Shown: in pieces, positions 1 through 54,097 of the stretch
Layout: every line of letters starts with the position of its first letter
Numbering within the stretch: position 1 is the stretch's first letter
NCBI RefSeq assembly: GCF_036588685.1
Contig: NC_086382.1
Span: forward strand, 50,261,378 to 50,325,377
Source of the DNA: Mytilus trossulus
Lineage: Eukaryota
Direction of reading: 5' to 3'
DNA: 64,000 nucleotides
Program-made: the position numbers and the translations under genes
Notes under the pieces: model-generated
What the model was told of the DNA's origin: nothing
The model's database searches: none
The model's input: only the letters and a program-made list of their open reading frames with translations

Positions 1-1790
1 GATCAAGAAATAACATCCCATGGATCAAACACAAACAGAGGAAAATGCTAAAGAAAAAACAGAGACTATACAAACAAGCCAGGAAAACAAACAAATGGTC
101 AAATTATAGGTCTTTCCAAAAGGAATGCAAGAAACAACTGAGGAAAGCAGAATACGAATATGTCAACCAAAACATCTTTGAGGGACTAAACAACAATTAC
201 ACAAAGCTGTTTTGGAAATACACTAAATCCAAACGCCAGGACTCAGGAGGAATAGCACCATTAAAAAAGGGAACTACTGTCAGTGACAGTAAAGGGAAAG
301 CCGAACTCCTACTAGATCAATTCAAGTCCGTATTCACAATAACATCAGACACTAACCTACCAACAACAAGAATACGAGCTAAAATCAATATAACACCATT
401 AACGATCGACCAAAAGGGACTGGAAAAACTACTTAAAAACACAAACCCAAATAAAGCCTCCGGACCAGACAACATCCCAAACCGCATACTTAAGGAATGT
501 GCTGAACAACTAGCACCCATACTACAAATCATTATGCCATGATCGCTAGACACAGGTGAACTACCAAAAGACTGGAGAGACGCCAACATATCCATTATCT
601 TCAAAAAAGGAGACAAACACCTGGCAGAAAACTACAGACCTGTATCCCTAACATCTGTCATCAGCAAAATTCTAGAACATATCGTATGCAGGCATATTCT
701 AAAACATCTGGAAAGAAACAAAATCCTAACCAACTTAAACCACGGCTTCAGGTCAGGATACTCATATGAAACCCAGCTCATAACTACCATCAACGACTTC
801 TTACAAGAACACGACAAGGGACATCAAATCGACGTAGGCATATTAGATTTTTCAAAAGCTTTCGACACAGTACCATACAACAAATTATTACATAAATTAG
901 ATCAGTATGGAATTAAAGGAAATACACACAAATGGCTTAAGAACTTCTTAACTGCAAGATCAATGAGAACCATCGTGGAAGGCGAATCATCTGGCGAAAC
1001 AACAGTCGACTCTGGGGTCCCCCAGGGCACAGTCTTAGGACCAATCCTATTCCTGTGCCACATCAATGACCTACCAGACAGTGTAACATCATCAGTAAGA
1101 CTATTTGCTGACGACTGCCTACTATACAGAACAATTAAAAATAGCCAAGTCCAACAAAAGCTACAAACAGATTTGGAACAACTATAAATCTGGGCCAACG
1201 CCACCTTGGGCTTTCTTTGGAGGAACTTGAGGAACGTACCAGAAGCATGTAGGAAAGTAGCATACATATCCCTTGTAAGATCAACAATGGAATATGGCGC
1301 AACGATCTGGAACCCATATATGAAAGGGGATATTGACAAACTAGAACGTATCCAAAACAGAGGATTACGATTCATCAAGAAAAACTACAGGAGTCGAGAG
1401 ACAGGGTCCATAACTAATATGAGACGCCAGCTTGAAATGGAGACGCTAGAGGAAAGAAGACACAGCCTCCGTCTTATCCTGATTTACAAGGTGGTTGAGG
1501 GTCTGGTGCCGGCTCTACCAGCCGACAATTTTGTCATACCAGCAAGACCGAAACGAACAATAAAAGCCAAAACTTATTCAAACTGTGAAACTGACAATAT
1601 CATCGAACGTCAAGTTATCAATAACACCAGAGGACTTAAGGTACCAAATAGCAACAAACCACAGTACAAACATTCATTTTTTGTGGAAACAACTATTCAC
1701 TGGAACCAACTACCAGATAAAGTTGTACATGCAGGTTATGTAGAGGCATTTAAGACCGCTTTTCAAGAACATCGCCCATAACAACGGCGC
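1..1790 (+). mobile_element. 5'-truncated non-LTR retrotransposon (LINE, jockey/CR1-like RT), degenerate copy 1
   Basis: ORF 45-542 continues through 1187 as a reverse-transcriptase domain (motifs PDNIPNRILK, FADD), and a C-terminal LINE domain follows at 1206-1781. Stops in all three frames near 540-570 and a roughly 180-bp internal deletion relative to copy 2 at 1187-1195. Confidence 0.8.
45..1781 (+). pseudogene. LINE ORF2 (RT) pseudogene, interrupted by stops and frameshifts
   Basis: Three ORF segments from the six-frame track (45-542, 963-1187, 1206-1781) together form one RT protein only after frame corrections. Confidence 0.75.
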
Positions 1791-2393
1791 TCTTCTCCGC
1801 CGTGTATAAAAGCCTAAACAGGATTCTACACGTACCACTACAGATACAGACAGATCAAACAATGTCAACTCGCCCCTGTTGCCAATCGGCCCATACTATT
1901 TCGCCACCTTACAAAAAAATCGCCCCACTCTTGTTTACCTACTCGCTCTACTTTTGAAAAAGTATAAAACCAAATTGAACAATCAGTCTGACAACTCACT
2001 TATTAACGAAAAAGTTTCAAACTCCAATGAATACAGGTCTGCCAGCTCGCCCCACTTATAAAAAGATTTGCTTCCTTTAAGTATGTTAAATAACTGTTAG
2101 TTCGTATCCCGGAGTCGTATCCAGGCGTCCTGGACTGGTGTAGTGGTATGTGTCGTGGCTTGATGTGCTAAAGGTCTTGAGTTCGAATCCCACCATATAC
2201 ACTGGAGTTTTTCTACATGAAGATAGTCTCCGTATGATTAATTAAGTTTTATAGTGGATTTGACATTCCCGCTAAAATGTTCAAGAACTATTGGTGTTCT
2301 CCTGAATTGATTAGCTTTACCAATGTGTCCTTGGGCAATCTACGAAGTTATGAAAGGTATCAATCTTACAATTTGATACGCCTGAAGTGCCTG
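1791..2393 (+). repeat. LINE 3'UTR / tail with tRNA-like module, copy 1
   Basis: Non-coding tail after the ORF stop. Contains a tRNA-like stretch (tagtggtat ... gagttcgaatccc). Its last 80 bp are shared with an unrelated SINE-like repeat at 8640-8720. Confidence 0.55.
2125..2195 (+). other. tRNA-like (degenerate) module inside LINE tail
   Basis: D-loop-like TAGTGGTAT and T-loop-like GAGTTCGAATCCC, but no clean cloverleaf. Confidence 0.35.
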
Positions 2394-3290
2394 ACAGTGT
2401 AACATCATCAGTAAGACTATTTGCTGACGACTGCCTACTATACAGAACAATTAAAAATAGCCAAGTCCAACAAAAGCTACAAACAGATTTGGAACAACTA
2501 GAAATCTGGGCCGACAAATGGGGAATGCGTTTCAACGCCAAAAAGTGCTATGTCCTATCCATAAACAAAAAAGCAGACAAATTCTACACGCTGAATAAAC
2601 ACATTCTACAAGAAGTACAAGTAAATCCCTGCTTAGGACTCCAAATCTCAAACGATCTGAAATGGAGCTTCCACATAAATAACATCAGCAAGAAAGCCAA
2701 CGCCACCTTGGGCTTTCTTCGGAGGAACTTGAGGAACGTACCAGAAGCATGTAGGAAAGTAGCATACATATCCCTTGTAAGATCAACAATGGAATATGGC
2801 GCAACGATCTGGAACCCATATATGAAAGGGGATATTGACAAACTAGAACGTATCCAAAACAGAGGATTACGTTTCATCAAGAAAAAACTACAGGAGTCGA
2901 GAGACAGGGCCCATAACTAATATGAGACGCCAGCTTGAAATGGAGACGCTAGAGGAAAGAAGATATAGCCTCCGTCTTATCCTGATTTACAAGGTGGTTG
3001 AGGGTCTGGTGCCGGCTCTACCAGCCGACAATTTTGTCATACCAGCAAGACCGAAACGAACAATAAAAGCCAAAACTTATTCAAACTGTGAAACTGACAA
3101 TATCATCGAACGTCAAGTTATCAATAACACCAAAGGACTTAAGGTACCAAATAGCAACAAACCACAGTACAAACATTCATTTTTTGTGGAAACAACTATT
3201 CACTGGAACCAACTACCAGATAAAGTTGTACATGCAGGTTATGTAGAGGCATTTAAGACCGCTTTTCAAGAATATCGCCCATAACAACGG
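2394..3290 (+). pseudogene. LINE ORF2 3' portion, copy 2 (tandem duplicate of 1078-1787 but retaining the 180 bp missing from copy 1)
   Basis: ORFs 2387-2920 and 2922-3284 are near-identical to 1078-1781. A frameshift lies near 2886. Confidence 0.75.
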
Positions 3291-3960
3291 CGCTCTTCTC
3301 CACCGTGTATAAAAGCCTAAACATGATTCTACACGTACCACTACAGATTCAGACAGATCAAACAATGTCAACTCGCCCCTGTTGCCAATCGGCCCATACT
3401 ATTTCGCCACCTTACAAAAAAATCGCCCCACTCTTGTTTACCTACTCGCTCTACTTTTGAAAAAGTATAAAACCAAATTGAACAATCAGTCTGACAACTC
3501 ACTTATTAACGAAAAAGTTTCAAACTCCAATGAATACAGGTCTGCCAGCTCGCCCCACTTATAAAAAGATTTGCTTCCTTTAAGTATGTTAAATAACTGT
3601 TAGTTCGTATCCCTGAGTCGTATCCAGGCGTCCTGGACTGGTGTAGTGGTATGTGTCGTGGCTTGATGTGTTGAAGGTCTTGAGTTCGAATCCCACCATA
3701 TACACTGGAGTTTTTCTACATGAAGATAGTCTCCGTATGATTAATTAAGTTTTATAGTGGATTTGACATTCCCGCTAAAATGTTCAAGAACTATTGGTGT
3801 TCTCCTGAATTGATTAGCTTTACCAATGTGTCCTTGGGCAATCTACGAAGTTATGAAAGGTATCAATCTTACAATTTGATACGCCTGAAGTGCGTTTCGT
3901 CTACATACGACTCACCAGTGAGGCTCACATTTAAAAAGTGAAAAGTCAAACAAGTACAAA
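3291..3960 (+). repeat. LINE 3'UTR / tail with tRNA-like module, copy 2
   Basis: Near-identical to 1791-2393. The tRNA-like part lies at about 3627-3697. Confidence 0.55.
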
Positions 3961-4340: not shown

Positions 4341-5565
4341 ACGTCTACCAGCAGTGGCATCGACATTGTACCCCATCTAGCCTTCTTTCCTTTCCTTACT
4401 GTTTCGTTCACCAGCATCTTTCTTCCTAGTCAGAGATTACTCAGATGTTCAACGGCTGTTTTGCTAGAAAATCTGGGGCCATGGGTCCTGTTGGACGTCA
4501 GAATAATCTCGGACTACTTTCTTCCGATCTCTATATTCCCATCGACCCAGTATTTGAATTGGGTTTTTCTATGTCTACAACATATGCATCTGTTCCATAC
4601 TAGTTTGCTCATACAAAATCGCTTCTTTCTCTCAAGTGGATTTCTGCAATTGTTTGGTATTCGATCCTTGTCTTTGAAATAAACAAGGGAAATTCACTCT
4701 ATTAAGATCTCAAATGCTCTAGTCTCGACAGATAAGCAGATCCTGATCCACATGTGGCATGCGTCGTGTTGTTCATGTAAGTACAAAAACGGGAAAAGAC
4801 AGTTGATACATAACCTCCGTACAGCAATATTTACGCAAATCGAATGTTCTAAAAACAGAACCATTGACCGGTGATCACAGTGTGTCTTTATGGCCTTCTC
4901 ATGTAGCTCTTCTCTGTTGCGTTGTTTGCCTCGTCCTCTGTTGGTCATTCAGAAAGAATGATATCATATGATCCATTGTTTTATTTGTACTGGTTGTAGA
5001 CAGGACCTTCTTTAAAAGAATTAAAAGAAGCTAACATTATCCATTACCTTCACTTTCCATTATTTAGATAATTTTCTCACATTGGAATAGACACTTTCCG
5101 TTTTGAATTTCCTCGGAGTTCGGTATTTTTATAATTTTACTGTTCTCTCCTAATATGTGGTGACTTAGTTGAACGCATCGATCCCATCGAACTTGAAATA
5201 AAGGATTACTCACCTAATGTTAAGTCTGCCTAATATCTTATTTTTCTACTACATCTACTTATTGACAATGAGAATTGACAATGAGGGTTTGTTATGAATA
5301 AAATTTTATGACATATGAGATGGTTTCAGTTCACAGTTGTGAATACTCATTTTTTTTTAAATCACATTTCATCAAGATGAAGTATATGTTTTATGAGTTT
5401 GAAATATCAGCTAAATTAAAGCCTTGGCAGCATTCACCTCTTTAATAAGGTGGGTTTCATTAGAGTCCAAGCGTGACGCGGGATTGTCGATTTTTAGTAA
5501 GGGCGACACGTGGAAGTCTCGGAAGCGTATTAGGGACATAGAAAAAAATAAAATTGGTAGTGACT

Positions 5566-6075
5566 TTTTTTTTTCAAAGTCAAAATTTTGGCTTTTCAAT
5601 CTCAAAATTTCGACTTTAACTCGAAATTTTAACTTTTCTTATCTTGAAATTTTAACTTTCTAAAATCTTGAAATTTCAACTTTTTTAAAACTCGAAATTT
5701 CGACTTTTTCTAAACTCGAAATTTCGACTTTTTCTTAACTCGAAATTTCAACTTCTTTTAAACTCAAAATTTTGACTTCTTTAAAACTCAAAATTTCGAC
5801 TTTTTAAACTCGAAATTTCGTCTTTTATTAAACTCGAAATTTCGACTTTTTTTAAACTCGAAATTTCGACTTTTATTAAACTCGAAATTTCAACTTCTTT
5901 TAAACTCAAAATTTTGACTTCTTTAAAACTCAAAATTTCGACTTTTTAAACTCGAAATTTTGTCTTTTATTAAACTCGAAATTTCGACTTTTTTTAAACT
6001 CGAAATTTCGACTTTTATTAAACTCGAAATTTCAACTTTTTCTAAACTCAAAATTTCTACTTTTTCCACACATTT
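5566..6075. repeat. tandem minisatellite (about 24-bp monomer, about 146-bp higher-order unit), left arm
   Basis: aaactcgaaatttcgactttt-type units, about 21 copies. Confidence 0.85.
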
Positions 6076-6181
6076 TGTCAATTTATATTCGTAATTGGTT
6101 TTGTTCTTAAATTAAGATATTGATCAGCATTTAATATTGAAGAAATCATTCGTAAAAAGAACATGCATGTTGACAGAAACA

Positions 6182-6204
6182 CCCCCCCCCCCCCCCCCCC
6201 CCCC
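6182..6204. repeat. poly(C) homopolymer of about 23 nt
   Basis: Read directly from the sequence. Confidence 0.9.
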
Positions 6205-6711
6205 ATATTTCATTTTTAAGTTTCCACGACACTGTCATAGGATCGTCAGATCTGAGGACATTTAGCATCACAGTTTCAAAGGCTTGTTTGGTATCCCAAT
6301 AGCAAGTCACTGACTTTGCCTTGTTTAAACAAAATGCCATTCATATTCAGGACGACCAATGAGTTGCTCAGTTTTCTAGTTTTGGAAGTTTGCATTCTTA
6401 TAACACAACTATTAACCCTTGTCTTTATATATTAGACTGTTGAATAAAAGTATGTCGTAATCTAGGTGTGTCGGAATAGCGGGGTGTCTTGATACATATA
6501 TCTGAAGTTCAGACTTAAAGTATGTATTCGAACGTGAAACATATTTTATTTATTCTTCGCCAAGAACAAGATTTTCTATCTAAAACAACCTCTCTAACAT
6601 GGTTTAATTTATTAAAATATGCTTATGAAGTTTGTGATGTATATGGCTCTCCGCCTTACTGATATAAATGACTGTGAATGTGGTAATCGCAAACGTATAA
6701 ATATGGGGAAA

Positions 6712-7018
6712 AGTCGAAATTTTAAGTTTAAAGAAAGTTGAAATTTCGAGTTTAAATGAAGTCAAAATTTCGAGTTTCGAAAAAGTCGAAATTTCGAGTT
6801 TAAAAGAAGTTGAAATTTCGAGTTAAGAAAAAGTCGAAATATCGAGTTTAGAGAAGCCGAAATTTCAAGTTTAAAAAAAGTCAAAATTTCGAGTTTTAAA
6901 AAAGTTGAAATTTCAAGATTTTAGAAAGTCAAAATTTCAAGATAAGAAAAGTTAAAATTTCGAGTTAAAGTTAAAATTTTGAGATTTGAAATGCCAAAAT
7001 TTTGACTTTGAAAAAAAA
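6712..7018. repeat. same minisatellite, inverted orientation, right arm
   Basis: aagtcgaaatttcgagttt-type units are the reverse complement of the 5566-6075 units. Confidence 0.85.
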
Positions 7019-7284
7019 GGTCACTACCAATTTTATTTTTTTCTATGTCCCTTATACGCTTCCGTAGAAGTCAAATTATTTTGCCGTGAAAACGTAAATG
7101 AAGTGTAGCGGGACACGGGAAATTACAAAAAAAAGAATTAGTAACGTACATAGTGTACTATAGGCGAAATATAGGAATCTGACAAAACAGTAAGCGTGAT
7201 CCGGGATCAGACCCTTTCCCCATGAAACCCCCTTAAACACTTCACTTTTTAGCTCACCTGGCCCACAGGGCCAAGTGAGCTTTT

Positions 7285-7336
7285 TCCATCACTTGGCGTC
7301 CGTCGTCCGTCGTCCGTCGTCTGTCGTCCGTCGTCC
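7285..7336. repeat. (CGTCCGT)n microsatellite
   Basis: cgtccgtcgtccgtcgtccgtcgtctgtcgtccgtcgtccgg. Confidence 0.85.
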
Positions 7337-7340
7337 GGTG

Positions 7341-8440
7341 TCGTTAACTTTTACAAAAATCTTCTCCTCTGAAACTACTAGGCCAAATTTTACCAAACTT
7401 GGCCACAATCGTCATTAGGGTATCTAGTTTAAAAAATATGTCCGGTGACCCGGCCAACCATCCAAGATGGCCGCCATGGCTAAAAATAGAACATAAGGGT
7501 AAAATGCAGTTTTTGGCTTATAACTCAAATACAAAAGCATTTAGAGCAAATCTGACATGGGGTAAAATTGTTTATCAGGTCAAGATCTATCTGCCCTGAA
7601 ATTTTCAGATAAATCAGATAACCTGTTAGTGGGTTGCTGCCCGTGAATTAGTAATTTTAAGGAAATTTTGCTGTTTTTGGATATTATCTTGAATATTATT
7701 ATAGATAGAGATAAACTGTAAACAGCAATAATGTTCAGCAAAGTAAGATTTACAAATAAGACAACATGACCGAAATGGTCAGTTGCCCCTTTAGAAGTTA
7801 TTGCCCTTTATAGTCAATTTTTAACCATTTTTCGTAAATCTTAGTAATCTTTTACTAAAATCTTCTTCTCTGAAACTACTGGGACAAATTAATCCAAACT
7901 TGGCAACAATCATCATTGGGGTATCTAGTTTAAAAAGTGTGTGGCGTGACCCGGCCAACTAACAAAGATGGCCGCCATGGCTAAAAATAGAACATAAGGG
8001 TAAAATGCAGTTTTTGGCTTATAACTCAAAAACCAAAGCTTTCAAAGCAAATCTGACATGAAGTAAAAATGTTTACAGGTCAAGATCTATCTGCCCTGAA
8101 ATTTTCAGATGAATCAGTCAACCTGTTGTTGGGTTGCTGCCCCTGAATTGGTAATTTTAATGAAATTTTGCTGTTTTTTTTTATGATCTTGAATACTATT
8201 ATAGATAGAGATAAACTGTAAAAAGCAATAAATGTCGACAAAGTAAGATCTACAAATAAGTCAACATGACCGAAATGGTCAGGAGTTATTGCCCTTTATA
8301 GTCAATTTTTAACCATTTTTCGTAAATCTTAGTAATCTTTTACAAAAATCTTCTCCTCTGAAACTACTGGGCCAAGTTCATTATAGATAAAGATAATTGT
8401 AAGCAGCAAGAATGTTCAGTAAAGTAAGATGTCCAAACAC
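7341..8440. repeat. satellite of about 500-bp units, about 2.2 tandem copies
   Basis: Units begin near 7341, 7855 and 8340 and are about 85-90 percent identical (ccaagatggccgccatggctaaaaatagaacataagggtaaaatgcag...). Confidence 0.8.
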
Positions 8441-10029
8441 ATCACCATCACCAAAATACAATTTTGTCATGAATCCATCTGTGTCCTTTGTTTAATATTC
8501 ACATAGACCAAGGTTTTTCGAAAAACTCAAAGTTTTGTAAACAGGAAATTTATAAAAATGACCAAATTATTGATATTCATGTCAACACCGAAGCCACGAA
8601 ACATCCACCAGTATCGACCCAGTGGTGTAAATAGTTGTCAAAGGTACCAGGATTATAATTTAGTACGTCAGACTCGTGTTTTGTCTACATAGGACTCATC
8701 AGTGACGCGCATATGAAAATAGTTATATGTTGAAGAGCATTGAGGATCCAAAATTCCAAAAAGTTGTGCCAACCCTGTTACTTATCGATAAAATACATTA
8801 GACAAAGAGAAAATAAACACATTAATTAATTTCATACTATAAGTACATACCTTGCAGGAGATAGCAGTCATGTTGTATGTTTTTTTTATATCTCTTTAAT
8901 TTATATTGATTACGGTAATCCATGGTTTAAAGATGCACTCGATTATGTTAAAATGTTATGTGAATCTGGTTTAAAGGTGCACTCGTTTATGTTTTTATAA
9001 TGTTATATTATTTACCACTAGTAGTACATTCTATAAAGATATTCCTTTTTCACTCATTGTCATATAAAAGAATATGAGTATTATAACATGTATGCTATTT
9101 TTTTCGGATAATACAGTGCACTTTTTTCAGCCTCCTGCTTCCCGGACAGTTGGTTTAAATGTAAACGGGAATCCACAGTTTGCATCCTGGGCAACTGAGG
9201 AAATTGTAAACAGAAAATATTTGGAATAAACAAGTATCAATTTAAAAAAAAAAAAAAGTTGTGCCAAATACGGCTAAAGTAATCTATGCCTGGTATAAGA
9301 AAATCCTTAGTTTTTCGAAAAATTCAAAGTTTTGTAAACAGGAAATTTTCGAAAATTCAACTTTAAAATGTGTTTTTATATAAAACCATCATTCACGCAA
9401 TTAACCTTCAAATTTCATGCAAGGACCGAAGCCCCTAAATTCGGCAATTAATGTGTTAAACGCAAGACTTCAGGAATGTCCGTAGAACGGACAACCTTGG
9501 TTCGGAAGTTGAATTTTGACCTGTGAACTTTACTAATACTTTTAAAATTCCCGCCATTTAAACTTCAAATCATTTCTATATTTAGAACGACAGGAAGTTG
9601 TGAAAGAAGAAACTGAGTCAAACTGAAAACTGAAACATCAACATGTAATTCTTGCCAACATTCGCAGTGTTTACCTGTTAACTATCTCATATGTTCTTAT
9701 AGCCACTTTTCCAATAATAGTTAAAAACTCTTCAGGTAAAAATTGTTGTTGGTGCCGAGTTGATTTATTTGTGCGTCGCGTAAAAAATATTATGCTACAA
9801 AAGGGGATTTCCATGTTTCACGACTCTGATCCAAATCAGCAAAAAGTGACTGACTTGTATACTATAGTCATGAGTCAATTAGATAAACATGAATTTAGAC
9901 ATGATATCAGAAGACACTAGATTATAAATACATTGTACATTACAAATGCATTAGGATCGTGATATGGTGTAGTATACTATATATTTTTATGAACAAATAA
10001 GAAAAATCATCTCCTGCTGTGAGTGATCT

Positions 10030-12920: not shown

Positions 12921-13677
12921 ATCTGTACATGTAAGGCTTATATATGACAACAAGAAAAATCCATGCTGTTTAGTCTGCTATAAAAGTCTCCAAACATGAA
13001 AAATTAGAAAACAATTCAATTCAGCAAACACTGAATTACAGACTCTTTGATTGGTTATTAACTGCGCCCTGGTGTGTTGTTGTAGCATGCTTGCCTCAAG
13101 TGCAGGAGATTGTGGGTTTGAAACCAAGAAGTATAACACAAAAGACTTTATTATTGGGTATTTGCTTCTTTTCTGTGATGCAACCGCATTAAAAAAATAA
13201 GAACAAGGACTGGTTTACCCTGAGTAAGAATTATGTGTTAAGGGTATACTGAGATGATCTGATTAATAGGGTAAAATTAAATAAATCAAGAATTCAAAAT
13301 TGATACTTTTAGCTTGAAGAGTATTAGTTCAGGATCAAAATAAGCTAAAATTGATAGGTCATGTAGCTCTTTTCAAGATATTTGACTTATGAAATATGGC
13401 AGAAAAAGGCTGACTTGGACTTTAACATTATATATGCAATGGTATTTTTTAGGTCTCAAATCAAAAGGAAGAAAATTAAGAATCTGCTTAAATTTTGTCA
13501 AATAACCTTTTATGAGCTATTAAGTCTCATGTAAAAAAGATAGATAGGTGTTATTGGGCAAAATATTTTACCTTGTTTGTATGGAAAATCACATTCAAGG
13601 AATCTGAACATTTGACACAAATTTCAAAACCTCCCTAATGGCTACATGTCTTCCGTAGAGACTCATTATCATCTTTA

Positions 13678-14275
13678 TTGTCTAGCTTGTTATATGTTTC
13701 TGGTTTATTTACAGAGTACACATGTTGTTTGTAATGACCCAGAAAAGGCAGATATCAGTTACAAATGTAAAATGGCCACAAAGTATGGATTACCAGTAGT
13801 GTCACTTGATTATATCCATGATTGTGTAGACCAGGGGAGATTACTCAATACAGATAATTACATCCTTGTTGTCTAGTTTGTTATATGTTTCTGGTTTATT
13901 TACAGAGTACACATGTTGTATGTAATGACTCAGAAAAGGCAGATATCAGTTACAAATGTAAAATGGCCACAAAGTATGGATTACCAGTAGTGTCACTTGA
14001 TTATATCCATGAGTGTGTAGACCAGGGGAAATCACTCTGTTGTCTAGCTTGTTATATATTTCTGGTTTATTTACAGAGTACACATGTTGTATGTAATGAC
14101 CCAGAAAAGGCAGATATCAGTTACAAATGTAAAATGGCCACAAAGTATGGATTACCAGTGGTGTCACTTGATTATATCCTTGATTGTGTAGACCAGGGGA
14201 GATTACTCAATACAGATAATTACATCCTGGTTGGAAAGACAAAGTCACAAGAATTCAGCAGTGGCAAAGTACCAG
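13678..14275 (+). repeat. PARP4: tandem triplication of a unit comprising the intron 3' end (acceptor) plus the BRCT-coding exon
   Basis: Units begin at 13678, 13869 and 14039. Each has ttatttacag followed by AGTACACATGTTGT... Only copy 3 continues to a GTAAGT donor (14276). Copy 2 is truncated and copy 1 ends without a canonical donor. Confidence 0.75.
14077..14275 (+). CDS. PARP4: PARP4-like exon 2 (BRCT: STHVVCNDPEKADISYKCKMATKYGLPVVSLDYILDCVDQGRLLNTDNYILVGKTKSQEFSSGKVP); alternative upstream copies at 13715-13864 and 13906-14035
   Basis: Phase 0 in, phase 1 out. Matches human CTHIILDNADV...IREKRLLDVKNY. Confidence 0.6.
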
Positions 14276-14282
14276 GTAAGTA

Positions 14283-14810
14283 TTTATGCCCCTGCCATAG
14301 GGGAGGGGGCAATAAAATTTACCCTTGTCTGTCTGTACCTCAGTCCATACATACATGTAGGTCCCACAGTTGCTTTCCGTTCTCTAACTTTATTTTGCCT
14401 CAACCAACTGTTATGAAACTTATACACAATGCTTAATACCACCAATTACAGATCAAGTTTGAATTTTGGTGGTGTCACTTTAACTTTTCTAGAGTTACAA
14501 ATGTATGCCCCTTTACGAATGAAAACATTTCTGAATTTTTGTTTCCATTCTCTAACTTAAGTTTGCCTCAACCAAATAGTATGAAACTTTATAATACACA
14601 ATGCTTATTACATGTACAACAAAATACAGATCAAGTTTGAATTTTGGTGATGTCACTTTAACAGTTCTAGAGTTATGCCTCTTTACAAATGTTATAAAAC
14701 TTATTACTACAAACCCAGATCAATAACAAATTTGGAAAGTATCACTTTTGCCATTCTTCAGTTATGTCCCTTCATATGATATACAAGTGGGGGCATAATC
14801 TGTGTCCCAT
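14283..14810. mobile_element. non-autonomous element with termini TATGCCCC...GGGGCATA and internal tandem repeats of about 180 bp
   Basis: tatgcccctgccatagggg at 14283 and gtgggggcataatc at about 14800. Internal units at 14380-14760. Begins 8 bp after the exon-2 donor. Confidence 0.45.
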
Positions 14811-26912: not shown

Positions 26913-27739
26913 GTATAAAATCAGAGGCAAATGCACCTTCTATGTTGTGATGAAATTGAAAATAACTATCCTAATGTTTTGGGTGGTTTTTATACCCCCG
27001 CTTTACCCGCTTTAAAAAAGGGGGTATACTGTTTTACCTCTGTCTGTCTGTCCGTCAGTCCGTCCGTCAGTCCGTCCATCAGTCCGTCCATCAGTCCGTC
27101 CGTCAGTCAGTCCGTCCCATGAAACTTTCGTCACATTTTTCTCAGGAACTTACAATATAAGGATTTCTGAAATTTGGTTTCAGGGTTTATCTAAGTCACC
27201 TATACCGTGTGATGCGTTTTCAGATTGATCACTTGACAACTTCCTGTTTACCGAACACTTGTATGATTTTATACATGATAGCCAAGTTGAAAATTTTCGT
27301 CACATTTTTCTCAGGAACTACAATACAAGGATTTCTGAAATTTGGTTTCAGGGTTTATCTAAGTCAGGTATACCGTGTGATGCATTTTCAGATTCATCAC
27401 TTGACAACTTCCTGTTTACCGAACACTTGCATATTTTTACACTATTAATATTATCCACTTGCGGTGGGGGTATCATCAGTGAGTAGTAGCTCACAGTTTA
27501 CTTGTTATTATTGATCTTTTGCATTAGGATATACTCCAAAAAACTTTTCCTTTCTTTTAAGAATATGAATAAATTCACCACTTTTGACTTATTAAAAATC
27601 TAAGCAAGGTAAATAATTCTTTGCAGTTAATCCAGTTTCAGCTAATTTTGAAATAGAAGGTACAATGTCCAATGAATGTTAAGCAGGGGTTCTGATCCCG
27701 AATCCCACTTACTGTTTTGTAAGATTCCCTGTATCCCAC

Positions 27740-29029
27740 TTGCACTACATGTATGTAAGTAACCAATTCTCTTTTTGTCGAGCCTTCGACTTTAGTCGAA
27801 AAAGCGAGACTAAGCGATCCTACTTTCCGTCGGCGTCTGCGGCGGCGGCGGCGTCAACAAATATTCACTCTGTGGTTAAAGTTTTTTATACGACCGCTTC
27901 AAAATTTTCGTCGTATATTGCTATCACGTTGGCGTCGTCGTCTGTGCGTCGTTGTCGTCGTCGTCGTCGTCGTCGTCCGAAAATACTTTTAGTTTTCGCA
28001 CTCTAACTTTAGTAAAAGTGAATAGAAATCTATGAAATTTTAACACAAGGTTTATGACCATAAAAGGAAGGTTGGTATTGATTTTGGGAGTTTTGGTCCC
28101 AACATTTTAGGAATTAGGGGCCAAAAAGGGCCCAAATAAGCATTTTCTTGGTTTTCGCACTATAACTTTAGTTTAAGTTAATAGAAATCTATGAAATTTT
28201 GACACAAAGTTGATGACCACAAAAGAAAGGTTGGGATTGATTTTGGGAGTTTTGGTTTTAACAGTTTAGGAATTAGGGGCCAGAAAAGGGCCCAAATAAG
28301 CATTATTCTTGGTTTTCGCACAATAACTTTAGTTTAAGTAAATAGAAATCAATGAAATTTAAATATAATGTTTATGACCACAAAAGGAAGATTGGTATTG
28401 ATTTTGGGAGTTTAGATCCAAACAGTTTAGGAATTAGGGGCCAAAAAGGGACCCAAATAAGCATTTTTCTTGGTTTTCGCACCATAACGATAGTATAAGT
28501 AAATAGAAATCTATGAAATTTAAACACAAGGTTAATGACCATAAAAGGAAAGTTGGTATTGATTTTGGGAGTTTTGGTCCCAACAGTTTAGGAAAAAGGG
28601 GCCCAAAGGGTCCAAAATTAAACTTTGTTTGATTTCATCAAAATTGAATAATTGGGGTTCTTTGATATGCCGAATCTAACTGTGTATGTAGATTCTTAAC
28701 TTTTGGTCCCGTTTTCAAATTGGTCTACATTAAGGTCCAAAGGGTCCAAAATTAAACTTAGTTTGATTTTAACAAAAATTGAATCCTTGGAGTTCTTTGA
28801 TATGCTGAATCTAAAAATGTACTTAGATTTTTGATTATTGGCCCAGTTTTCAAGTTGGCCCAAATCGGGGTCCAAAATTTAACTTTTTTGATTTCATCAA
28901 AAATTGAATAAATGGGGTTCTTTGATATGCCAAATCTAACTGTGTATGTAGATTCTTCATTTTTATACGACCGCAAATTTTGAAAAAATTTTCGTCGTAT
29001 ATTGCTATCACGTTGGCGTCGTCGTCGTT

Positions 29030-29062
<33 letters not shown>

Positions 29063-32000
29063 CGAATACTTTTAGTTTTCGCACTCTAACTTTAGTAAAA
29101 GTGAATAGAAATCTATGAAATTTTAACACAAGGTTTATGACCATAAAAGGAAGGCTGGTATTGATTTTGGGAGTTTTGGTCCCAATATTTTAGGAATTAG
29201 GGGCCAAAAAGGGCCCAAATAAGCATTTTCTTGGTTTTCGCACTATAACTTTAGTTTAAGTTAATAGAAATCTATGAAATTTTGACACAAGGTTTATGAC
29301 CACAAAAGCAAGGTTGGGATTGATTTTGGGAGTTTTGGTTTCAACAGTTTAGGAATTAGGGGCCAAAAAAGGGCCCAAATAAGCATTATTCTTGGTTTTC
29401 GTACAATAACTTTAGTTAAAGTAAATAGAAATCAATGAAATTTAAACACAATGTTTATGACCGCTAAAGGAAGGTTGGTATTGATTTTGGGAGTTTCGGT
29501 CCTAACAGTTTAGGAATTAGGGGCCAAAAAGGGACCCAAATAAGCATTTTTCTTGGTTTTTCGCACCATAGCGTTAGTATAAGTAAATAGAAATCTATGA
29601 AATTTAAACACAAGGTTTATGACTATAAAAGGAAGGTTGGTATTGATTTTGGGAGTTTGGGTCCCAACAGTTAAGGAAAAAGGGGCCCAAAGGGTCCAAA
29701 ATTAAACTTTGTTTGATTTCATGAAAATTGAATAATTGGGGTTCTTTAATATGCCGAATCTAACTGTGTATGTAGATTCTTAATTTTTGGTCCTGTTTTC
29801 AAATTGGTCTACATTAAGGTCCAAAGGGTCCAAAATTAAACTTAGTTTGATTTTAACAAAAATCAAATTCTTGGGCCTCTTTGATATTCTGAATCTAAAC
29901 ATGTACTTAGATTTTTGATTATGGGCCCAGTTTTCAAGTTGGTCCAAATCAGGATCTAAAATTATTATATCAAGTCTTTTCAATTGCACAGTATTGTGCA
30001 ATGGCAAGAAATATCTAATTTCACAATATTGTGAAATAGCAAATTTTTTTTTAATTAAGAGTTATCTTTCTTTGTCCAGTAAAGTAAGCAAGAAATATCT
30101 GCAAGATTTTTTTTTAATTGGAGTTATCTTTCTTTGTCCAGAATCAACTTAAATCTTTGTTATATACAATATACAATGTATATTCACTTTTTACTACCAA
30201 CTGATAAATTTAAATAATCTTTACCATTCAGTGATAACAAGCAGTTTTTTTACATCTTAATATTTTATGATGTATTTAAATGAGTAGTAATTGTTGCAAA
30301 CTTCATTAGAATATTTTAATTGAAATTAGTTTTGGAATAAGGGAGAGGGGGATGTGATTAAAAAATTGGGTTCAAATTTTTCTCATTTGAAATTTCATAA
30401 ATAAAAAGAAAATTTCTTCAAACATTTTTTTGAGAGGATTAATATTCAACAGCATAGTGAATTGCTCTAAGAGAAAACAAAAAAATTAAGTTCATTTGAA
30501 TACATTCATTCTGTGTCAGAAACCTATGCTGTGTCAACTATTTAATCACAATCCAAATTTAGAGCGGAATCCAGCTTGAATGTTGTGTCCATACTTGCCC
30601 CAACTGTTCAGGGTTCAACCTCTGCGGTCGTATAAAGCTACGCCCTGCGGAGCATCTGGTTGGTCCTGTTTTCAAATTGGCCTACATTAAGGTCCAAAGA
30701 GTCCAAAATTAAACTAAGTTTGATTTTAACAAAAATTAAATTCTTGGGCCTCTTTGATATGCTGAATCTAAACATGTACTTAGATTTTTGATTATGGGCC
30801 CAGTTTTCAAGTTGGTCCAAATCAGGATCTAAAATTATTATATTAAGTATTGTGGAATAGCAAGTCTTTTCAATTGCACAGTATTGTGCAATGGCAAGAA
30901 ATATCTAATTTCACAATATTGTGAAATAGCAAATTTTTTTTTAATTAGAGTTATCTTTCTTTGTCCAAAATAGTAAGCAAGAAATATCTTATTGCAAGAA
31001 TTTTTTTTAATTGGAGTTATCTTTCTTTGTCCAGAATCAACTTAAATCTTTGTTATATACAATATACAATGTATATTCACCTTTTACTACCAACTGATAA
31101 ATTTAAATAATCTTTACCATTCAGTGATAACAAGCAGTTTTTTTACATTTTATTTACAGTTTATTTTATGATGTATTTAAATGAGTAGTTATTGTTGCAA
31201 ACTCCATTAGAATATTTTAATTGAGATTAGTTTTGGAATAAGGGAAAGGGGGATGTGATTAAAAAATTGGGTTCAATTTTTCTCATTTGAAATTTCATAA
31301 ATAAAAAGAAAATTTCTTCAAAAATTATTTTGAGAGGATTAATATTGAACAGCATAGTGAATTGCTCTAAGAGAAAACAAAAAAATTTAAGTTCATTAGA
31401 ACACATTCATTCTGTGTCAGAAACCTATGCTGTGTCAACTATTTAATCACAATCCAAATTAAGAGCTGAATCCAGCTTGAATGTTGTGTCCATACTTGCC
31501 CCAACCGTTCAGGGTTCAACCTCTGCCGTCGTATAAAGCTACGCCCTGCAAAGCATCTGGTTGAAATTTTAATAACTTTCTTAAACTATAATGGATTTCT
31601 ACCAAACTTGGACAGAAGCTTGTTTATGATCTTAAGATAGTATCCAGAAGTGAATTTTGTAAAAATAAAATTCAAATTTTTCCAAATTTTACTTATAAAT
31701 GGACTTAGTTTTTCTACGGGGAAACATTACATTCACTCTGTGGTTAAAGTTTTTAGAATTTTAATAACTTTCTTAAACTATCCTGGGTTTGTACCAAACT
31801 TGGACAGAAGCTTGTTTATGATCATAAGATAGTAACCAGAAGTAAATTTTGTAAAATAATAAATCCATTTTTTCCATATTTTACTTTTAAATGGACTTAG
31901 TTTTTCTGCGGGGAAACATTACATTCACCCTGTGGTCAATGGTGGTTAAAGTTTTTAAAATTTTAATAACTTTCTTAAACTATCCTGGGTTTGTACCAAA

Positions 32001-32250: not shown

Positions 32251-32515
32251 ATTTTTTTCCGTATTTTTGTTGAACCTGCGATTTACAGCAAAAGTAGGCG
32301 AGACACCGGGTTCCGGGGAACCCTTACAACTTTTTTTTGTAATTTCCCGTGTCCCACTAGACTTTATTTCCAGTTTTCATGGCACAATAATTTGACTTTC
32401 AGGTGTCATGCTTATAACAAATCAGCCAATGCCGAGTCACACTTAGACCCCAATGAAGTATATAACTTTCTATTTAGAATTAGCTGTAGAATAAATAATT
32501 TGTCTTTAAATACAG

Positions 32516-35250: not shown

Positions 35251-35406
35251 GATGTATTTACAGTCAGTGTGGGTAATCTACCACCAGGGTGTGTGGCCCT
35301 CATCAAGATAACTTATGTATCAGAATTACAAGTAGAGGGAGAATTGATTAACTTTACAATTCCTGGATCTGTGGCTCCTTGGAAACAGGGACCCAGTAAT
35401 ACTGAG
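35251..35406 (+). CDS. PARP4: PARP4-like exon 15 (DVFTVSVGNLPPGCVALIKITYVSELQVEGELINFTIPGSVAPWKQGPSNTE)
   Basis: Human counterpart is DVFTVSVGNLPPKAKVLIKITYITEL...ATVAPWQQD. Confidence 0.8.
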
Positions 35407-35692
35407 GTAAGGGAGGTAATCTACCACCAGGGTGTGTAGCCCTCATCAAGATAACTTATGTATCAGAATTACAAGTAGAGGGAGAATTGATTAACTTTAC
35501 AATTCCTGGATCTGTGGCTCCTTGGAAAGAGGGACCCAGTAATACTGAGGTAAGGGAGGTAATCTACCACCAGGGTGTGTAGCCCTCATCAAGATAACTT
35601 ATGTATCAGAATTACAAGTAGAAGGAGAATTAATTAACTTCACAATTCCTGGATCTGTGGCTCCTTGGAAACAGGGACCCAGTAATACTGAG
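35407..35692 (+). repeat. PARP4: two extra tandem copies (143 bp each) of [first 8 nt of intron + last 135 nt of exon 15]
   Basis: gtaaggga + GGTAATCTACC...ACTGAG repeated at 35407 and 35550. The copies differ from the exon at a synonymous GTG-to-GTA site. The 143-nt length would shift the frame if the downstream donors were used. Confidence 0.8.
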
Positions 35693-36943
35693 GTAAGGGA
35701 GGTATTCTATAATATGGGGCTCTCATTATGGGTCTGATCCAGGATCCTGTTTATTGTTTTGTCAGATTAAAGAAGCCCACTTATCATTGTAATAAGTCAA
35801 TGGAGATAATTGGGACAACACCTCAAAATGAGGAACTCAAAAGTCATGTGTAAAGAAAAATCTCTGTGTAGTGAAATTGGACATGTTTCTATTTTTTTCA
35901 AATGACTGAGCTTAACCATTTGTGGTGATTAGGAAAGTAAAGAAACAAAGAATAAATTTGTAAAAACTATGGAGCTATTGAATATGTTCAAAGTATTAAA
36001 ATTTTCAAAGAACTTATTGTGTTAAAAAGGGGATACTTTACCACAAGGAGCCGCATCAAAAAGGATGTTCGGAGAATGCTAATTTACGAAAAAAGTAATC
36101 TCACTTCGTACCTTGAAAATTTAACCACATATGTTAAAATGTCACAAAAAAAGCTATCCTACATATCCAAGTTTACGATATGGATTAAGCTACAGGAAAA
36201 AACGTTACCATTACCGCCTATGAAAAAACAATAAAAGATATTGACCCAATTGCAAATAGACTGAGACAATGTGTTTGTCCCTAGATATGTTTTGTGCCAA
36301 AAATACAAGTCGTTCAATCTACAGTTCAAATGCTTGTTACAGGGAGAATGAGAAGGATAGACAATTAATACATAGAGAATAATACATGGCAAAATCCGTA
36401 TTATATGTTGTATCATCCCGAGACATCAATATCAGCCCAAGGGCCTTTAGGCCCGAGGGATGATATTGGTTGAGGGTGATACGGCATGTGATATGGATTT
36501 TGCCATGTATTATACGCTTTATCATATATTTCAACAGAAGAGTATTATATTATATGAACTGTTATCTGATCCATAGCACTGGGTTACCTTCAGTTCTGCA
36601 TTTGTCTTGTTTCAAAGCCTTAAAATAACTGCTCAATTATTTATACGAAGCACCTGGATTTTGCCATGTATTATCCTTACAATCTGTTGTTTTAAAAATA
36701 TTTTGTTTATTATTGTATTTATTTGAGTATTTTGTATTTTTTATACATGTATAGTTGCATTCAGTGTACCAAAAAATATGTTGTGAAAACTTATGTTCAT
36801 GACGTCACATACAATATTAAACTTGACGTTCGTGACGTTACATACCAAACAATGACGTCATTAAAAAAATTGACCTATTTTAAGGATTTTTTTCTTAAGC
36901 CAAAAATAAACAAAAACTGACTTCATGTAAAAAAAAAAAAAAA

Positions 36944-44352: not shown

Positions 44353-46457
44353 TGCCCGTGTCACACTGTCCCGATTTTTATATACGATGGACACCCGAAT
44401 GTGAAAATTGTAAGCTCGTACGAAGTTAGTCCCGATCTCGTTAAAATACCAAAAAGTGACCGAAGCAAGAACGATGAAGAACGAAGTCTATACGATGGTG
44501 CCGAAATTATATACGATAGCAAAAGATGGACATACGAAGGTTAACCGAAGACGGTTATTTAAGCTTCATATCTCAGCCGAAGCCTACAAGTTGGATCACG
44601 AAGGCTACACGATGGATTACGTAGGCTACACGATGGATTACGATGATGGCGCGATGGCCATACGATGTCTAAAATGTGTTCTACCTGTTATGAACTTTTT
44701 ATGATACGAACAGAATAACGACAACATATCGTTTCTGTACAAGTCCGCCATGCATGGCGGGAAATCGATCTTTTTATCTTATTCTTATGAAAGTTAGTTT
44801 ATTATCCCCCTCGCCTACTTCATGTAAGTTGCGTGTAGATAAAATGTTATGGACACTCTAGAACCAAAACGTCAAAACTTGGTATGGTGTTACTCGTTAA
44901 GAATATCTTAAGCGCTTTTGACTTTAAAGTTCAAAGGTCAAGGTCACAGTGGCAGTTGTAATACAAGGCAATATCACCCTTGTGGACACTCTAAAACCAA
45001 TATGCTTCAAAAGATTTTAACCACATTTGGTATATTGTTCCTCCTTGTATTAAATGATCTGACATTTTTTACGTTCAATGCCAAAGGTGAAGGTCATGCA
45101 GATGGACTTGTTTTTTCTCCTTGAAATAACATAATACACAGGAAATTGGTTGCTCAATTTTTTACCTGCTGGTTCTAAAGACACTATTTAGATATTTCCA
45201 GTTACATTGTACTCAATGTTTTGGTTGATTTCTAAAAAAATAGTTTATGTATCAAATATGCATATTCAATTTACCATTTTCTGCATGTGTCATATACACA
45301 TATAGTGTCCATATTTGTCCCCAATATGTTACATACGAGGGGATGCCACGCTCGGCATTGTCTTGTTTTAACTGTAAAATGTGTAGACTAGTCTGAATAA
45401 TCACCCATAATTAAGCCCATGTTTACTGATCTATCTTAAAGTTAAGGTAATGGGTTCGGTGATCCCTTTTATTCTAAAAGAGCTCTTTCCAGGAGAATAT
45501 CATAATAACATAGACAAAATAAAGGATGTGGGGAAAGCAACAAATGCGGCAAAATATGACATATAGAAAACAAGATGGTTATGGAGTAAACATTCGTGTG
45601 ACAACAACTCAGACGATACATAAAAAAATCAGAATAATGAAGAAAAAGTTGGTTTCCCTATATACGTGTACCTTCAGTGTTGGTGTACGAGGCGCGTTTA
45701 TGATTTTCATTATGTTACTTGATATATTTATATGAAAAATTTACAAAAAATAATATTTGACTTGTAAAGGTAAATCCTTAGCCTGTAATAGCTGCTCTTC
45801 TTGTTCCATTTGAATTAATAGAAACAACGCTGTCGCCTTTCTTGATCTCATAGAATCATATGATAGGAGCTCCATGTTGTGTGAACGTCTTTCTTAACTG
45901 TTGTATTAGACTGACCAGTGCATATCGCGCATGGCACTTTTAATGTATTTTAGCGCTAAAATTAACTTAGATTTTGCTAGATTTATTGCCGTCGTAGATT
46001 CATCTTGTCGCCTTCGTACATTTATTCGATGGCAACACGACGGTATTACGAGGTATTCACGTAGTCGTGTTGCCATCATACGACCTTCGGGTAGCTTCGT
46101 GATTCATTCGTGTAGACATCGTAATGTCAAAACTGCCCGATGGAAACGATGGAAACACGAATGCAATACGATGTTCAAAGATGCATTCCCGGTGACATTA
46201 CGATGGGAAGGATGGTGATACGAACTCAATACGAACCCTCAACATCGGACGCACCTTCGGGGATTTTTTAACATGTTAAAAAATTTAGAACCCTTCCCGA
46301 AGTTGTCCCCGAAGGCTAGAAAAAGTGGCCGATGGTTCTACGAAGGTTAAAGATGGCACTACGAATAGCCCGATATGGATACGATCAGTCCCGATTTTGA
46401 AAATTTCCATAATCGTGTTGCCATCGGCATAAAAATTGGGACAGTGTGACGCGGGCA
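44353..46457. mobile_element. non-autonomous DNA transposon of about 2.1 kb with about 27-bp TIRs and flanking TAA direct repeats (PIF/Harbinger-like)
   Basis: TGCCCGTGTCACACTGTCCCGATTTT at 44353 and its reverse complement at 46431-46457. TAA at 44350-44352 and again at 46458-46460. No long intact ORF inside; the internal ORFs of 68-95 aa are low complexity. Confidence 0.55.
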
Positions 46458-46566
46458 TAACAAATAACATTTTACTGCTTAATATATATGTGATGTCATT
46501 GTACATCTTTAAACGTTATGTTGATCATTTGATATATCACGGGGCTAATTAATTCTTTGTTTACAG

Positions 46567-50600: not shown

Positions 50601-51019
50601 AAATGATATAAAATCTGTCTTCTGCAATTGATGTATCCAACCTGAGTCACTGTCATTATATCTAACAGATATTTTTTAAAAAGATTCAACTATTTCTAAA
50701 ACTTGGGAATATGTATGTGGCTTCTCAAAATCCTGAAGAGATCTAATATATTGAAAAATTTTAGAATGATTTTTTTTATTGTGATGGATTTTTGATTAAT
50801 TGACAAAATTGGAAGATTAATTATTTAAATTTTTAAATACAAATAAAACAAGCAAAATTTGAAAAAGAAGTTTTCATTTTTGCAAAGCTTATACTGTTGC
50901 AATTTTCTCAATATTAAAAACATCACAAATTATATCTGAATTTACTGTTTTAAAAGCAACACATTTATGAAGGCTGTCTTGATTATATACACAAACATTT
51001 TAAAAGCCTCTACTTGTTT

Positions 51020-54000: not shown

Positions 54001-54097
54001 GATGAGGAAGTATCGTCAGATGGACCTTTTATATCAGAGTTAGTTGATAGAGAAGATGTGGACTTCCTTAACTACCTCAACTGGGAGGGAGAGACAG
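54001..54097 (+). CDS. PARP4: PARP4-like exon 26
   Basis: DEEVSSDGPFISELVDREDVDFLNYLNWEGET(G). Human counterpart is PFPDIPKVSELIAKEDVDFLPYMSWQGEPQ. Donor GTAAGT. Phase 1 out. Confidence 0.75.

Follow-up and report, generated by a model that had tools for sequence, protein, structure and literature searches.

DNA transposons of the IS3EU/GingerRoot group are recognized by their 5'-TA...TA-3' termini (PMC10045372; PMC6839031), and GingerRoot has been described as combining such ends with a 6-bp target-site duplication (TSD) and terminal inverted repeats (TIRs) of 100-150 bp, and as having homologues in Crassostrea gigas, fish and corals (PMC6839031). Bivalves are known to harbor the superfamily (IS3EU-1/3/4/6_CGi and IS3EU-1_CVi; PMC6839031; PMC10045372), and two oyster satellite DNAs have been listed as IS3EU-like, with nothing more said about their design (PMC8268682). 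A survey of bivalve transposons relied on 17 superfamily profiles, IS3EU not being among them, and left MITEs (miniature inverted-repeat transposable elements) unclassified (PMC10294476). Here we analyze a non-autonomous element located at 5519-7066 (plus strand) of a 64,000-nt stretch of contig NC_086382.1 of Mytilus trossulus (the window, to which all coordinates given without a locus name refer), which a first-pass annotation had presented as a classic Foldback (FB) transposon. We consider, with a probability of roughly 78%, that it is an old, inactive, non-autonomous (internally deleted) IS3EU/GingerRoot DNA transposon of foldback-like shape that was moved by the mechanism proposed below.

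An insertion flanked by a 6-bp target-site duplication

A TSD was found as two identical copies of the hexamer GAAGTC (6/6 positions) that directly flank the element, the left copy at 5513-5518 and the right copy at 7067-7072. The nature of the segment between them was revealed by a dispersed repeat of about 128 nt, whose end reads ...GGGAAATTACAAAAAAAAG, that is present twice in the window and may be a SINE tail or the end of another element. The first copy of this repeat (5456-5518 plus 7067-7135) is interrupted by the element, whereas the second copy (32330-32457, minus strand) is intact and represents a paralogous empty site, i.e., an uninterrupted version of the insertion target. The left flank (5456-5518) aligned with 32457-32394 with a score of 46, as compared with 19.4 +/- 2.4 and a maximum of 31 in 300 shuffles, and a BLAST search of the flanks against the window matched the right flank (7068-7135) to 32398-32330 with 89.9% identity over 69 aligned positions. 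The two flank alignments overlap at ...AAGTC, where the paralogue carries the hexamer AAAGTC (32399-32394, minus strand), and the flanks joined after removal of one duplication copy are collinear with the paralogue across a gap-free junction. Since the collinear flanks overlap at the duplicated hexamer in a paralogue that is uninterrupted, the segment between them, 5519-7066, is a transposable-element insertion. The element that had been placed at 5500-7085 is real, and its limits are now corrected to 5519-7066.

Taken alone, the window junctions permit TSD readings of 6 bp (6/6), 7 bp (GGAAGTC/AGAAGTC, 6/7) and 8 bp (TGGAAGTC/TAGAAGTC, 7/8). However, the TA at 7065-7066 belongs to a tip that is conserved across all ten termini aligned in this work (see below), and because these relatives show that this TA is part of the element, the TSD is a perfect 6-bp duplication. 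The conserved terminal TA, together with the relatives, also ruled out the 8-bp (hAT, P or Merlin) and 9-bp (FB) TSD readings.

Arms, terminal blocks and center of the element

The element is 1548 bp long, reads 5'-T(A)CGGAAGCG...CGCTTCCGTA-3' and is AT-rich (GC 29% over 5519-7066), its limits being set by the TSD and by the end of the homology to the empty-site paralogue. Self-alignment confirmed that the two arms are mutually reverse-complementary, as had been judged by eye. An ungapped inverted repeat of 211 nt (90% complementary) pairs 5520-5730 with 6854-7064, and the gapped alignment of 5519-5875 with the reverse complement of 6709-7066 gave 323 matches, 31 mismatches and 7 gap positions, that is, 89.5% identity over about 357 nt, reaching 93.9% in the outer 212 nt and 83% in the inner part. 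The arms were originally drawn at 5521-6075 and 6712-7065; within the corrected limits of the element the left arm measures 557 nt and the right arm 358 nt, and therefore the inner ~200 nt of the left arm have no unique partner.

Each arm starts with a terminal block. The left block (5519-5564, plus strand) has the tip T-CGGAAGCGTATTAGGGACAT, in which the A of the terminal TA is absent, and this tip aligns with the termini of the mini-element L001 and of five IS3EU loci that are described below, whereas the tip of the right block (7020-7066, minus strand) reads TACGGAAGCGTATAAGGGACAT on the minus strand. In agreement with the 45-bp terminal block initially attributed to each arm, 5520-5564 and 7020-7064 (minus strand) agree at 44 of 45 positions, and this 45-nt block has just two copies in the window, with 0 expected from shuffles.

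Inward of the terminal blocks, both arms consist of tandem copies of a 24-nt monomer, AACTCGAAATTTCGACTTTTTTTA, for which Tandem Repeats Finder (TRF) reported 18.9 copies at 5618-6065 and 10.8 copies at 6709-6966, so that the 24-bp repeats of the first description also hold. The left-arm array (5576-6075, plus strand) comprises about 19-21 copies, each formed by the core ACTCGAAATTTCGAC and a T-rich spacer; 19 of its cores are no more than 3 substitutions away from the consensus, and the outermost monomer, which starts at about 5576, is decayed. The right-arm array (6709-7008, minus strand) contains about 11-13 copies of the same monomer in inverted orientation, with 11 cores found on the minus strand. 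All 34 matches of the 16-nt monomer core in the window fall within the element (0.02 expected). The core includes the perfect 12-nt palindrome TCGAAATTTCGA, and because of it each arm also folds on itself. The potential to form a large hairpin, which had been pointed out before, was borne out by the folding of single-stranded 5543-7041 as one long stem with a minimum free energy of -367 kcal/mol, a value that has no shuffle control.

A higher-order unit of about 146 bp had been claimed for each arm. The actual repeat has a length of 142 bp and is restricted to the left arm (5647-6056, plus strand; 2.9 copies; TRF period 142, 93% matches). It corresponds to six monomers, five of 24 nt and one of 22 nt, and its two full copies, 5738-5879 and 5880-6021, are identical at 141 of 142 positions.

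The unique, non-coding center lying between the arms spans 633 bp (6076-6708; GC 35%) rather than the 650 bp estimated at first. Its longest open reading frame (ORF) has 64 aa, and comparisons with the rest of the window, with the fetched IS3EU loci and with IS3EU proteins brought up no meaningful similarity. The C23 homopolymer at 6182-6204 (plus strand) is exactly as had been read from the sequence; it has no counterpart in L001, and no link to element function was seen. The ORF search of 4500-8500 yielded none longer than 84 aa, and an Rfam scan of the window gave no match.

A structure of this kind could also have arisen when a minisatellite was duplicated locally in inverted orientation, or the assembly could have created the foldback artificially; in either case there would be no mobile element at all. 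Palindromes and the C23 homopolymer are indeed error-prone sites for assembly, and the window contains a single copy of the element. Nevertheless, the arms differ in length and share only about 90% identity, the sharp limits coincide with a perfect TSD and with a collinear empty-site paralogue, and independent data sets contain the same termini and monomers. We therefore regard the probability of a duplication or an artefact as practically negligible.

Age and decay of the copy

When 30 monomer cores were compared, positions 2, 3, 6, 8-11 and 15 were without any variation, and 29 of the 38 core substitutions were C-to-T or G-to-A changes at the two CpGs (CpG to TpG/CpA). Accordingly, the non-CpG core positions are nearly invariant in the window copy, whereas the spacers are variable. 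Since those 29 substitutions carry the signature of methylated-CpG deamination, the copy is old, and the CpG decay together with the ~10% divergence of the arms and the lack of coding capacity marks it as inactive. Judged from its sequence, the element is old, inactive and non-coding. In contrast to the arms, which are only about 90% alike, the full 142-bp units differ at a single position, which indicates that their duplication long postdates the insertion and that the array remains unstable. This recent 142-bp duplication accounts for most of the arm-length difference.

Relatives carrying the same monomer

A search with a two-monomer pattern matched one metagenome contig (VAPL010305480.1), which contains a mini-element of about 300 bp (L001) with the tip TACGGAAGCGTATTAGGG at both ends. 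The L001 termini are perfect over 25 nt, TTACGGAAGCGTATTAGGGCCACGA, with TA at both ends, and they are accompanied by inverted arrays (4.2 and 3.5 copies) of a 21-nt monomer that has the identical 15-nt core ACTCGAAATTTCGAC and a spacer of 6 nt, as compared with 9 nt in the window element. The L001 center, of about 85 nt, is unrelated to the center of the window element, and the flanks of L001 show an ATTTT(T) duplication of 5-6 bp. Hence, L001 and the window element have in common the tip, (T)ACGGAAGCGTATTAGGG, and the monomer core, whereas the remainder of the block, the spacer length and the center differ, a pattern that is expected if tip and core are, as they would appear to be, cis-acting sites. 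A solo array of six CpG-decayed 20-nt monomers, the last of which is identical to the window monomer (AACTCGAAATTTCGACTT), was found at L011:7211-7330, 2 kb from the complete IS3EU element of this locus (see below) and outside it.

Other searches for copies gave negative results. Translations of the arms and of the center were used as bait for spurious ORFs on other copies and had no match in a collection of 5.8 billion proteins; a 24-mer of the terminal block, probably too specific as a query, retrieved nothing from metagenome or prokaryote genome collections; the tip-plus-first-monomer pattern retrieved nothing from the genome collection, and the two-monomer pattern nothing from viral contigs. 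Three 17-mer tip matches in viral contigs were discarded as chance matches, since they lie inside GC-rich phage coding sequence and are accompanied neither by monomers nor by a second end.

Terminal motif at IS3EU transposase loci

A profile derived from 15 catalytic cores of published IS3EU/GingerRoot elements, of which five are oyster sequences (supplement of PMC10045372), detected 4851 relatives carrying the Pfam domain rva_4. The genomic surroundings of eight relatives were fetched, and six of these eight loci were searched for the tip by a test controlled with shuffles. The tip motif was present in four of the six loci (L007, L008, L010 and L012), always on the transposase strand and 0.5-2.5 kb upstream of the gene, in diverged forms with 3-6 mismatches to the 22-nt consensus. 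Shuffles of the six loci predicted 0.155 such matches versus the 4 observed, and 0.005 versus 3 at no more than 4 mismatches. The four loci share one layout, in which the tip is followed, after 39-46 nt, by an array of 9-23 copies of ~21-nt monomers with a palindromic core. Thus, L008 (Mytilus coruscus) has the tip TACGGAAGCCTTTTAGGGCCAT and 9.4 copies of 21 nt with the core AATTTGATATAACAAATT; L007 (Dreissena polymorpha), the tip TACGAAAGCCTATTAGTACCAC and about 15 copies of ~21 nt with the core GGCGTTATAACGCC; L010, the tip TACGGAAGCACATTTAGGACAT and 22.9 copies of 21 nt with the core CGGTATATACCG; and L012, the tip TACGGAAGCTTCCTAGGGCCAC and 20 copies of 21 nt with the core GTCCTACGTAGGAC. 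At the sequence level, therefore, the tip and the tip-spacer-array layout are common to the window element and to transposase-bearing IS3EU elements.

A complete element was delimited in L011 (9365-17891). It has a length of 8527 bp, 137-nt TIRs that are 95% identical, TA...TA ends and the tip TACGGTGCTTTAGAAGGGACAT, is flanked by the TSD CTATTA/CAATTA and encodes an rva_4 transposase (E = 4.7e-23). This element is nested in the catalytic core of another IS3EU transposase gene (L011:9040-9411 and beyond 17892), and the host gene regains its reading frame (...AKYYLDSIRQVGGIPRTIRSDDGT...) when the element is deleted along with one of the TSD copies, which proves that the TSD of this element is of 6 bp. 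The L011 locus has short 12-nt repeats, unlike the 21-nt arrays of L007, L008, L010 and L012. The alignment of all ten termini has the consensus TACGGAAGC.T.TTAGGG.CA, after which the sequence is A-rich.

The tip motif was not found in L009, a Pinctada locus of the other IS3EU subgroup, and a looser scan of L013 and L014 (up to 7 mismatches, no shuffle control) revealed no tip; L014, which belongs to the L010 family and is truncated at its 5' end, yielded no boundary. The other-subgroup IS3EU gene of L009 (Pinctada imbricata) adjoins 63-nt tandem repeats, with a 31-nt inverted partner 5 kb off (L009:3172-3935 and 9025-9276), and ends made of repeats may be common among IS3EU elements outside the clade considered here as well. 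IS3EU genes or transposase remnants were also sought in the center of the window element and in the rest of the window, where nothing but noise was obtained (best E = 0.018). Several IS3EU proteins gave weak, unconvincing tblastn matches at 46059-46531, on both strands (best E = 0.018), which may be a very degraded integrase remnant or noise.

Superfamily assignment

Three of the four features by which IS3EU/GingerRoot elements are recognized are found at the locus itself. The right end, ...CGCTTCCGTA (7066), has the terminal TA, which is present at both ends in L001 and L011, and the left end reads T-CGGAAGCG without the A; the TSD GAAGTC is of 6 bp (6/6); and the TIRs are long, with ~357 nt paired at 89.5%, exceeding the 100-150 bp of GingerRoot because of the monomer arrays. 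The link to the fourth feature, the transposase, is indirect, as the element has no ORF for it and the window no IS3EU gene, whereas diverged tips lie upstream of rva_4 genes in four loci and a related tip delimits the L011 element.

The 6-8-bp range of TSD readings at the window junctions would leave room for a foldback-like derivative of the P superfamily (Galileo-like) or of hAT, with a TSD read as 7 or 8 bp, and passages of PMC4079207 and PMC3573991 describe for Galileo long, internally repetitive TIRs with transposase-binding sites. However, the TA at 7065-7066 in the conserved tip of all ten aligned termini leaves the perfect 6-bp duplication, the complete relative in L011 has a 6-bp TSD proven by ORF restoration, and no THAP, P or hAT gene adjoins any related terminus. 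The combination that distinguishes Galileo, a 7-bp TSD and a THAP-domain P transposase, was not observed, and the 7-bp reading agrees at 6/7 positions and would drop the conserved terminal A. A P or hAT origin thus appears quite improbable.

Membership in the classic Foldback lineage (Drosophila FB, Tetris or Tm1-type), moved by a Mutator/Phantom-type transposase, would fit the shape of the element, with its long inverted arms of short tandem repeats and its variable non-coding middle. Nevertheless, its TSD is of 6 bp versus the 8-10 bp reported for Tetris (PMC4079207), and the longest reading that the window alone provides, 8 bp at 7/8, is excluded by the conserved terminal TA. Moreover, the element ends in TA...TA, and its terminal motif adjoins IS3EU (rva_4) transposase genes instead of a Mutator-like element (MULE) or Phantom partner. 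Because a foldback shape may evolve independently in separate lineages (PMC4079207), and in view of these differences, we hold the Foldback lineage to be highly improbable. From the first-pass annotation, the foldback architecture and the status of a transposon insertion, now backed by the empty site and the TSD, are retained, whereas the family is revised on account of the 6-bp TSD, the TA...TA ends and the IS3EU-linked termini.

The assignment to IS3EU/GingerRoot has to be weighed against several observations that speak against it. In the collections searched, the source genome not being among them, no copy came up that combines a transposase with the monomer of the window element, ACTCGAAATTTCGAC; the link to the superfamily is based on the terminal motif, the layout and the TSD, and the relatives with the same monomer are limited to L001 and the decayed solo array at L011:7211-7330. 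The left tip is one base short (T-CGG vs TACGG), the monomer period is 24 nt as opposed to 20-22 nt in the relatives, and for L007, L008, L010 and L012 only one end of the element was located, a search over 10 kb having failed to reveal the right one. In addition, the L001 TSD has 5 bp unless one T from the T-run is counted as flank, which makes it a perfect 6 bp, and the only sign that the relatives have a DNA-binding domain is an HTH_21 match below threshold (E = 0.023).

Proposed mechanism and possible modular ends

For the window element as an IS3EU/GingerRoot transposon, we propose that an IS3EU-type DDE transposase with an integrase-like core (rva_4/rve), which would be encoded at another genomic site and act in trans, would have recognized the ~22-nt tip TACGGAAGCGTATTAGGG(A/C)CA at both ends. 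The same transposase probably bound the palindromic 12-15-nt sites (ACTCGAAATTTCGAC) that recur every 24 nt in both arms, so that the monomer cores are predicted to be transposase-binding sites, and the palindromic cores may have been occupied by the transposase, or by an accessory domain, as a dimer. The many sites, at a spacing of roughly two helical turns in both arms, would have helped the two ends to pair. A precedent is provided by Galileo, in which, according to a passage of PMC4079207 citing Marzo et al. 2013, tandem repeats within the long TIRs carry extra transposase (THAP)-binding sites. Excision would then have been followed by integration via a 6-bp staggered cut, which would have generated the GAAGTC duplication. 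After insertion, the copy would have undergone methylated-CpG deamination while its arms drifted to about 90% identity, and the left arm would lately have been lengthened by tandem duplication of the 142-bp block of six monomers.

A different view of the arrays would keep the IS3EU derivation and take them as passive, slippage-prone sequence that grows within the TIRs and plays no role in transposition. The very recent duplication of the 142-bp block (141/142), long after decay, shows that arrays can grow without selection for transposition. However, independent IS3EU lineages keep the layout (39-46-nt spacer, 20-22-nt period) with different 12-14-nt palindromic cores, GGCGTTATAACGCC, GTCCTACGTAGGAC, CGGTATATACCG and TCGAAATTTCGA, and in the window copy the near invariance of the non-CpG core positions contrasts with the variation of the spacers. 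Passive arrays are therefore unlikely, albeit less so than an origin outside IS3EU, and arrays that contribute to end recognition by an IS3EU transposase are the preferred explanation.

More tentatively, with chances that we place somewhat short of even, these loci may belong to a clade of animal IS3EU/GingerRoot elements sharing modular ends, in which a ~22-nt tip of the ten-terminus consensus would be followed by a ~40-nt A-rich spacer and by 10-25 monomers with a ~21-nt period (two helical turns) and a 12-14-nt palindromic core, the whole providing a lineage recognition code. The tip is constant, whereas the cores are lineage-specific (TCGAAATTTCGA, GGCGTTATAACGCC, GTCCTACGTAGGAC, CGGTATATACCG and AATTTG-N6-CAAATT). 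If this were true, the constant tip and the varying cores would reflect co-evolution between a dimeric DNA-binding domain and its own arrays, and the lineage code would limit cross-mobilization. Foldback-shaped non-autonomous elements such as the window copy would then be deletion products of array-ended IS3EU elements, and foldback-type elements would be a product of IS3EU as well as of the Mutator and P superfamilies. In any case, a conserved tip combined with lineage-specific palindromic arrays offers a testable model of end recognition by an integrase-like transposase.

Other features of the window

A GC-rich hairpin, AGCTCACCTGGCCCACAGGGCCAAGTGAGCT, followed by (CGTCCGT)n, adjoins the insertion at 7236-7340, and a near-identical copy of this hairpin is present in Mytilus coruscus (L008:20701-20740). 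Elsewhere in the window, (GTCC)n microsatellites stand beside 135-168-bp tandem repeats at 27042-29944. These hairpin and microsatellite features look like those of bivalve pearl/Helentron-type non-autonomous elements.

Positions 1-3300 hold two incomplete copies, duplicated in part, of a LINE-type retrotransposon (RVT_1). The closest named relatives of their ORF are from Pinctada imbricata (65%), Mytilus edulis (55%) and Littorina saxatilis (48%), and matches of 94-98% were obtained in aquatic metagenomes only. Further tandem repeats include an 82-bp x 37 array at 51016-54050 (96% matches) with a very strong GC skew (up to 0.55); a 171-191-bp tandem duplication at 13665-14436 that doubles a BRCT-domain exon, with a 183-aa ORF holding two copies of the BRCT segment; and a seemingly coding-like 143-bp x 3.1 repeat at 35272-35709 (97% matches), which may be another duplicated exon.

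Comparison with known systems

The window element resembles IS3EU/GingerRoot elements in its TA...TA termini, 6-bp TSD, long TIRs, occurrence in a bivalve and terminal motif. Unlike transposase-carrying IS3EU elements, it has no transposase, and its arms, of 358-557 nt and made almost wholly of 24-nt tandem monomers, differ from the 100-150-bp TIRs of GingerRoot. Subterminal arrays with palindromic cores are not described in PMC6839031 or PMC10045372, and the terms 'subterminal' and 'tandem repeat' are absent from PMC6839031. More generally, no description of a tip-spacer-array design for IS3EU was found in the literature searched, although Repbase consensus sequences may already show such a design.

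With Foldback-type elements (Drosophila FB, Tetris of D. virilis, Tm1 of Meloidogyne and Galileo), the window element shares long, unequal, inverted arms of tandem repeats, a variable non-coding middle and arm growth by repeat amplification. It differs from them in its 6-bp TSD, in its termini and in the transposase that presumably moved it, an integrase-like IS3EU enzyme and not one of the MULE or P type. Drosophila FB duplicates 9 bp of target, and Galileo, a foldback-like member of the P superfamily, 7 bp.

A third group, the tandem-repeat MITEs and Helentron-derived elements of bivalves (pearl, DTC84 and Cg170 carriers), matches the window element in host type, in being non-autonomous and in containing tandem repeats. 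In these carriers, repeats of ~150-190 bp form a single central array next to a microsatellite, and long TIRs are not known from them, whereas the window element has 24-nt monomers in two inverted arms, TA...TA ends and a TSD. Under the strict definition of MITEs, to which a high copy number also belongs, it is non-coding and has TIRs and a TSD, but its 1548 bp exceed the limit of ~800 bp, within which L001 (~300 bp) fits.

Such bivalve elements usually stay annotated as unclassified 'MITE' or satellite-like repeats, and the tip motif combined with a 6-bp TSD provides a simple rule for assigning them to IS3EU/GingerRoot. A near-perfect 1.5-kb hairpin with ongoing array duplication could also, plausibly if speculatively, seed minisatellites or satellites and give rise to rearrangements, and it may be the recombination hotspot envisaged in the first-pass annotation. 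Taken together, these comparisons indicate that the name 'Foldback' is correct for the shape of the element and wrong for its family, and that an element of an ordinary kind displays here an architecture that, in the literature searched, is new for IS3EU.

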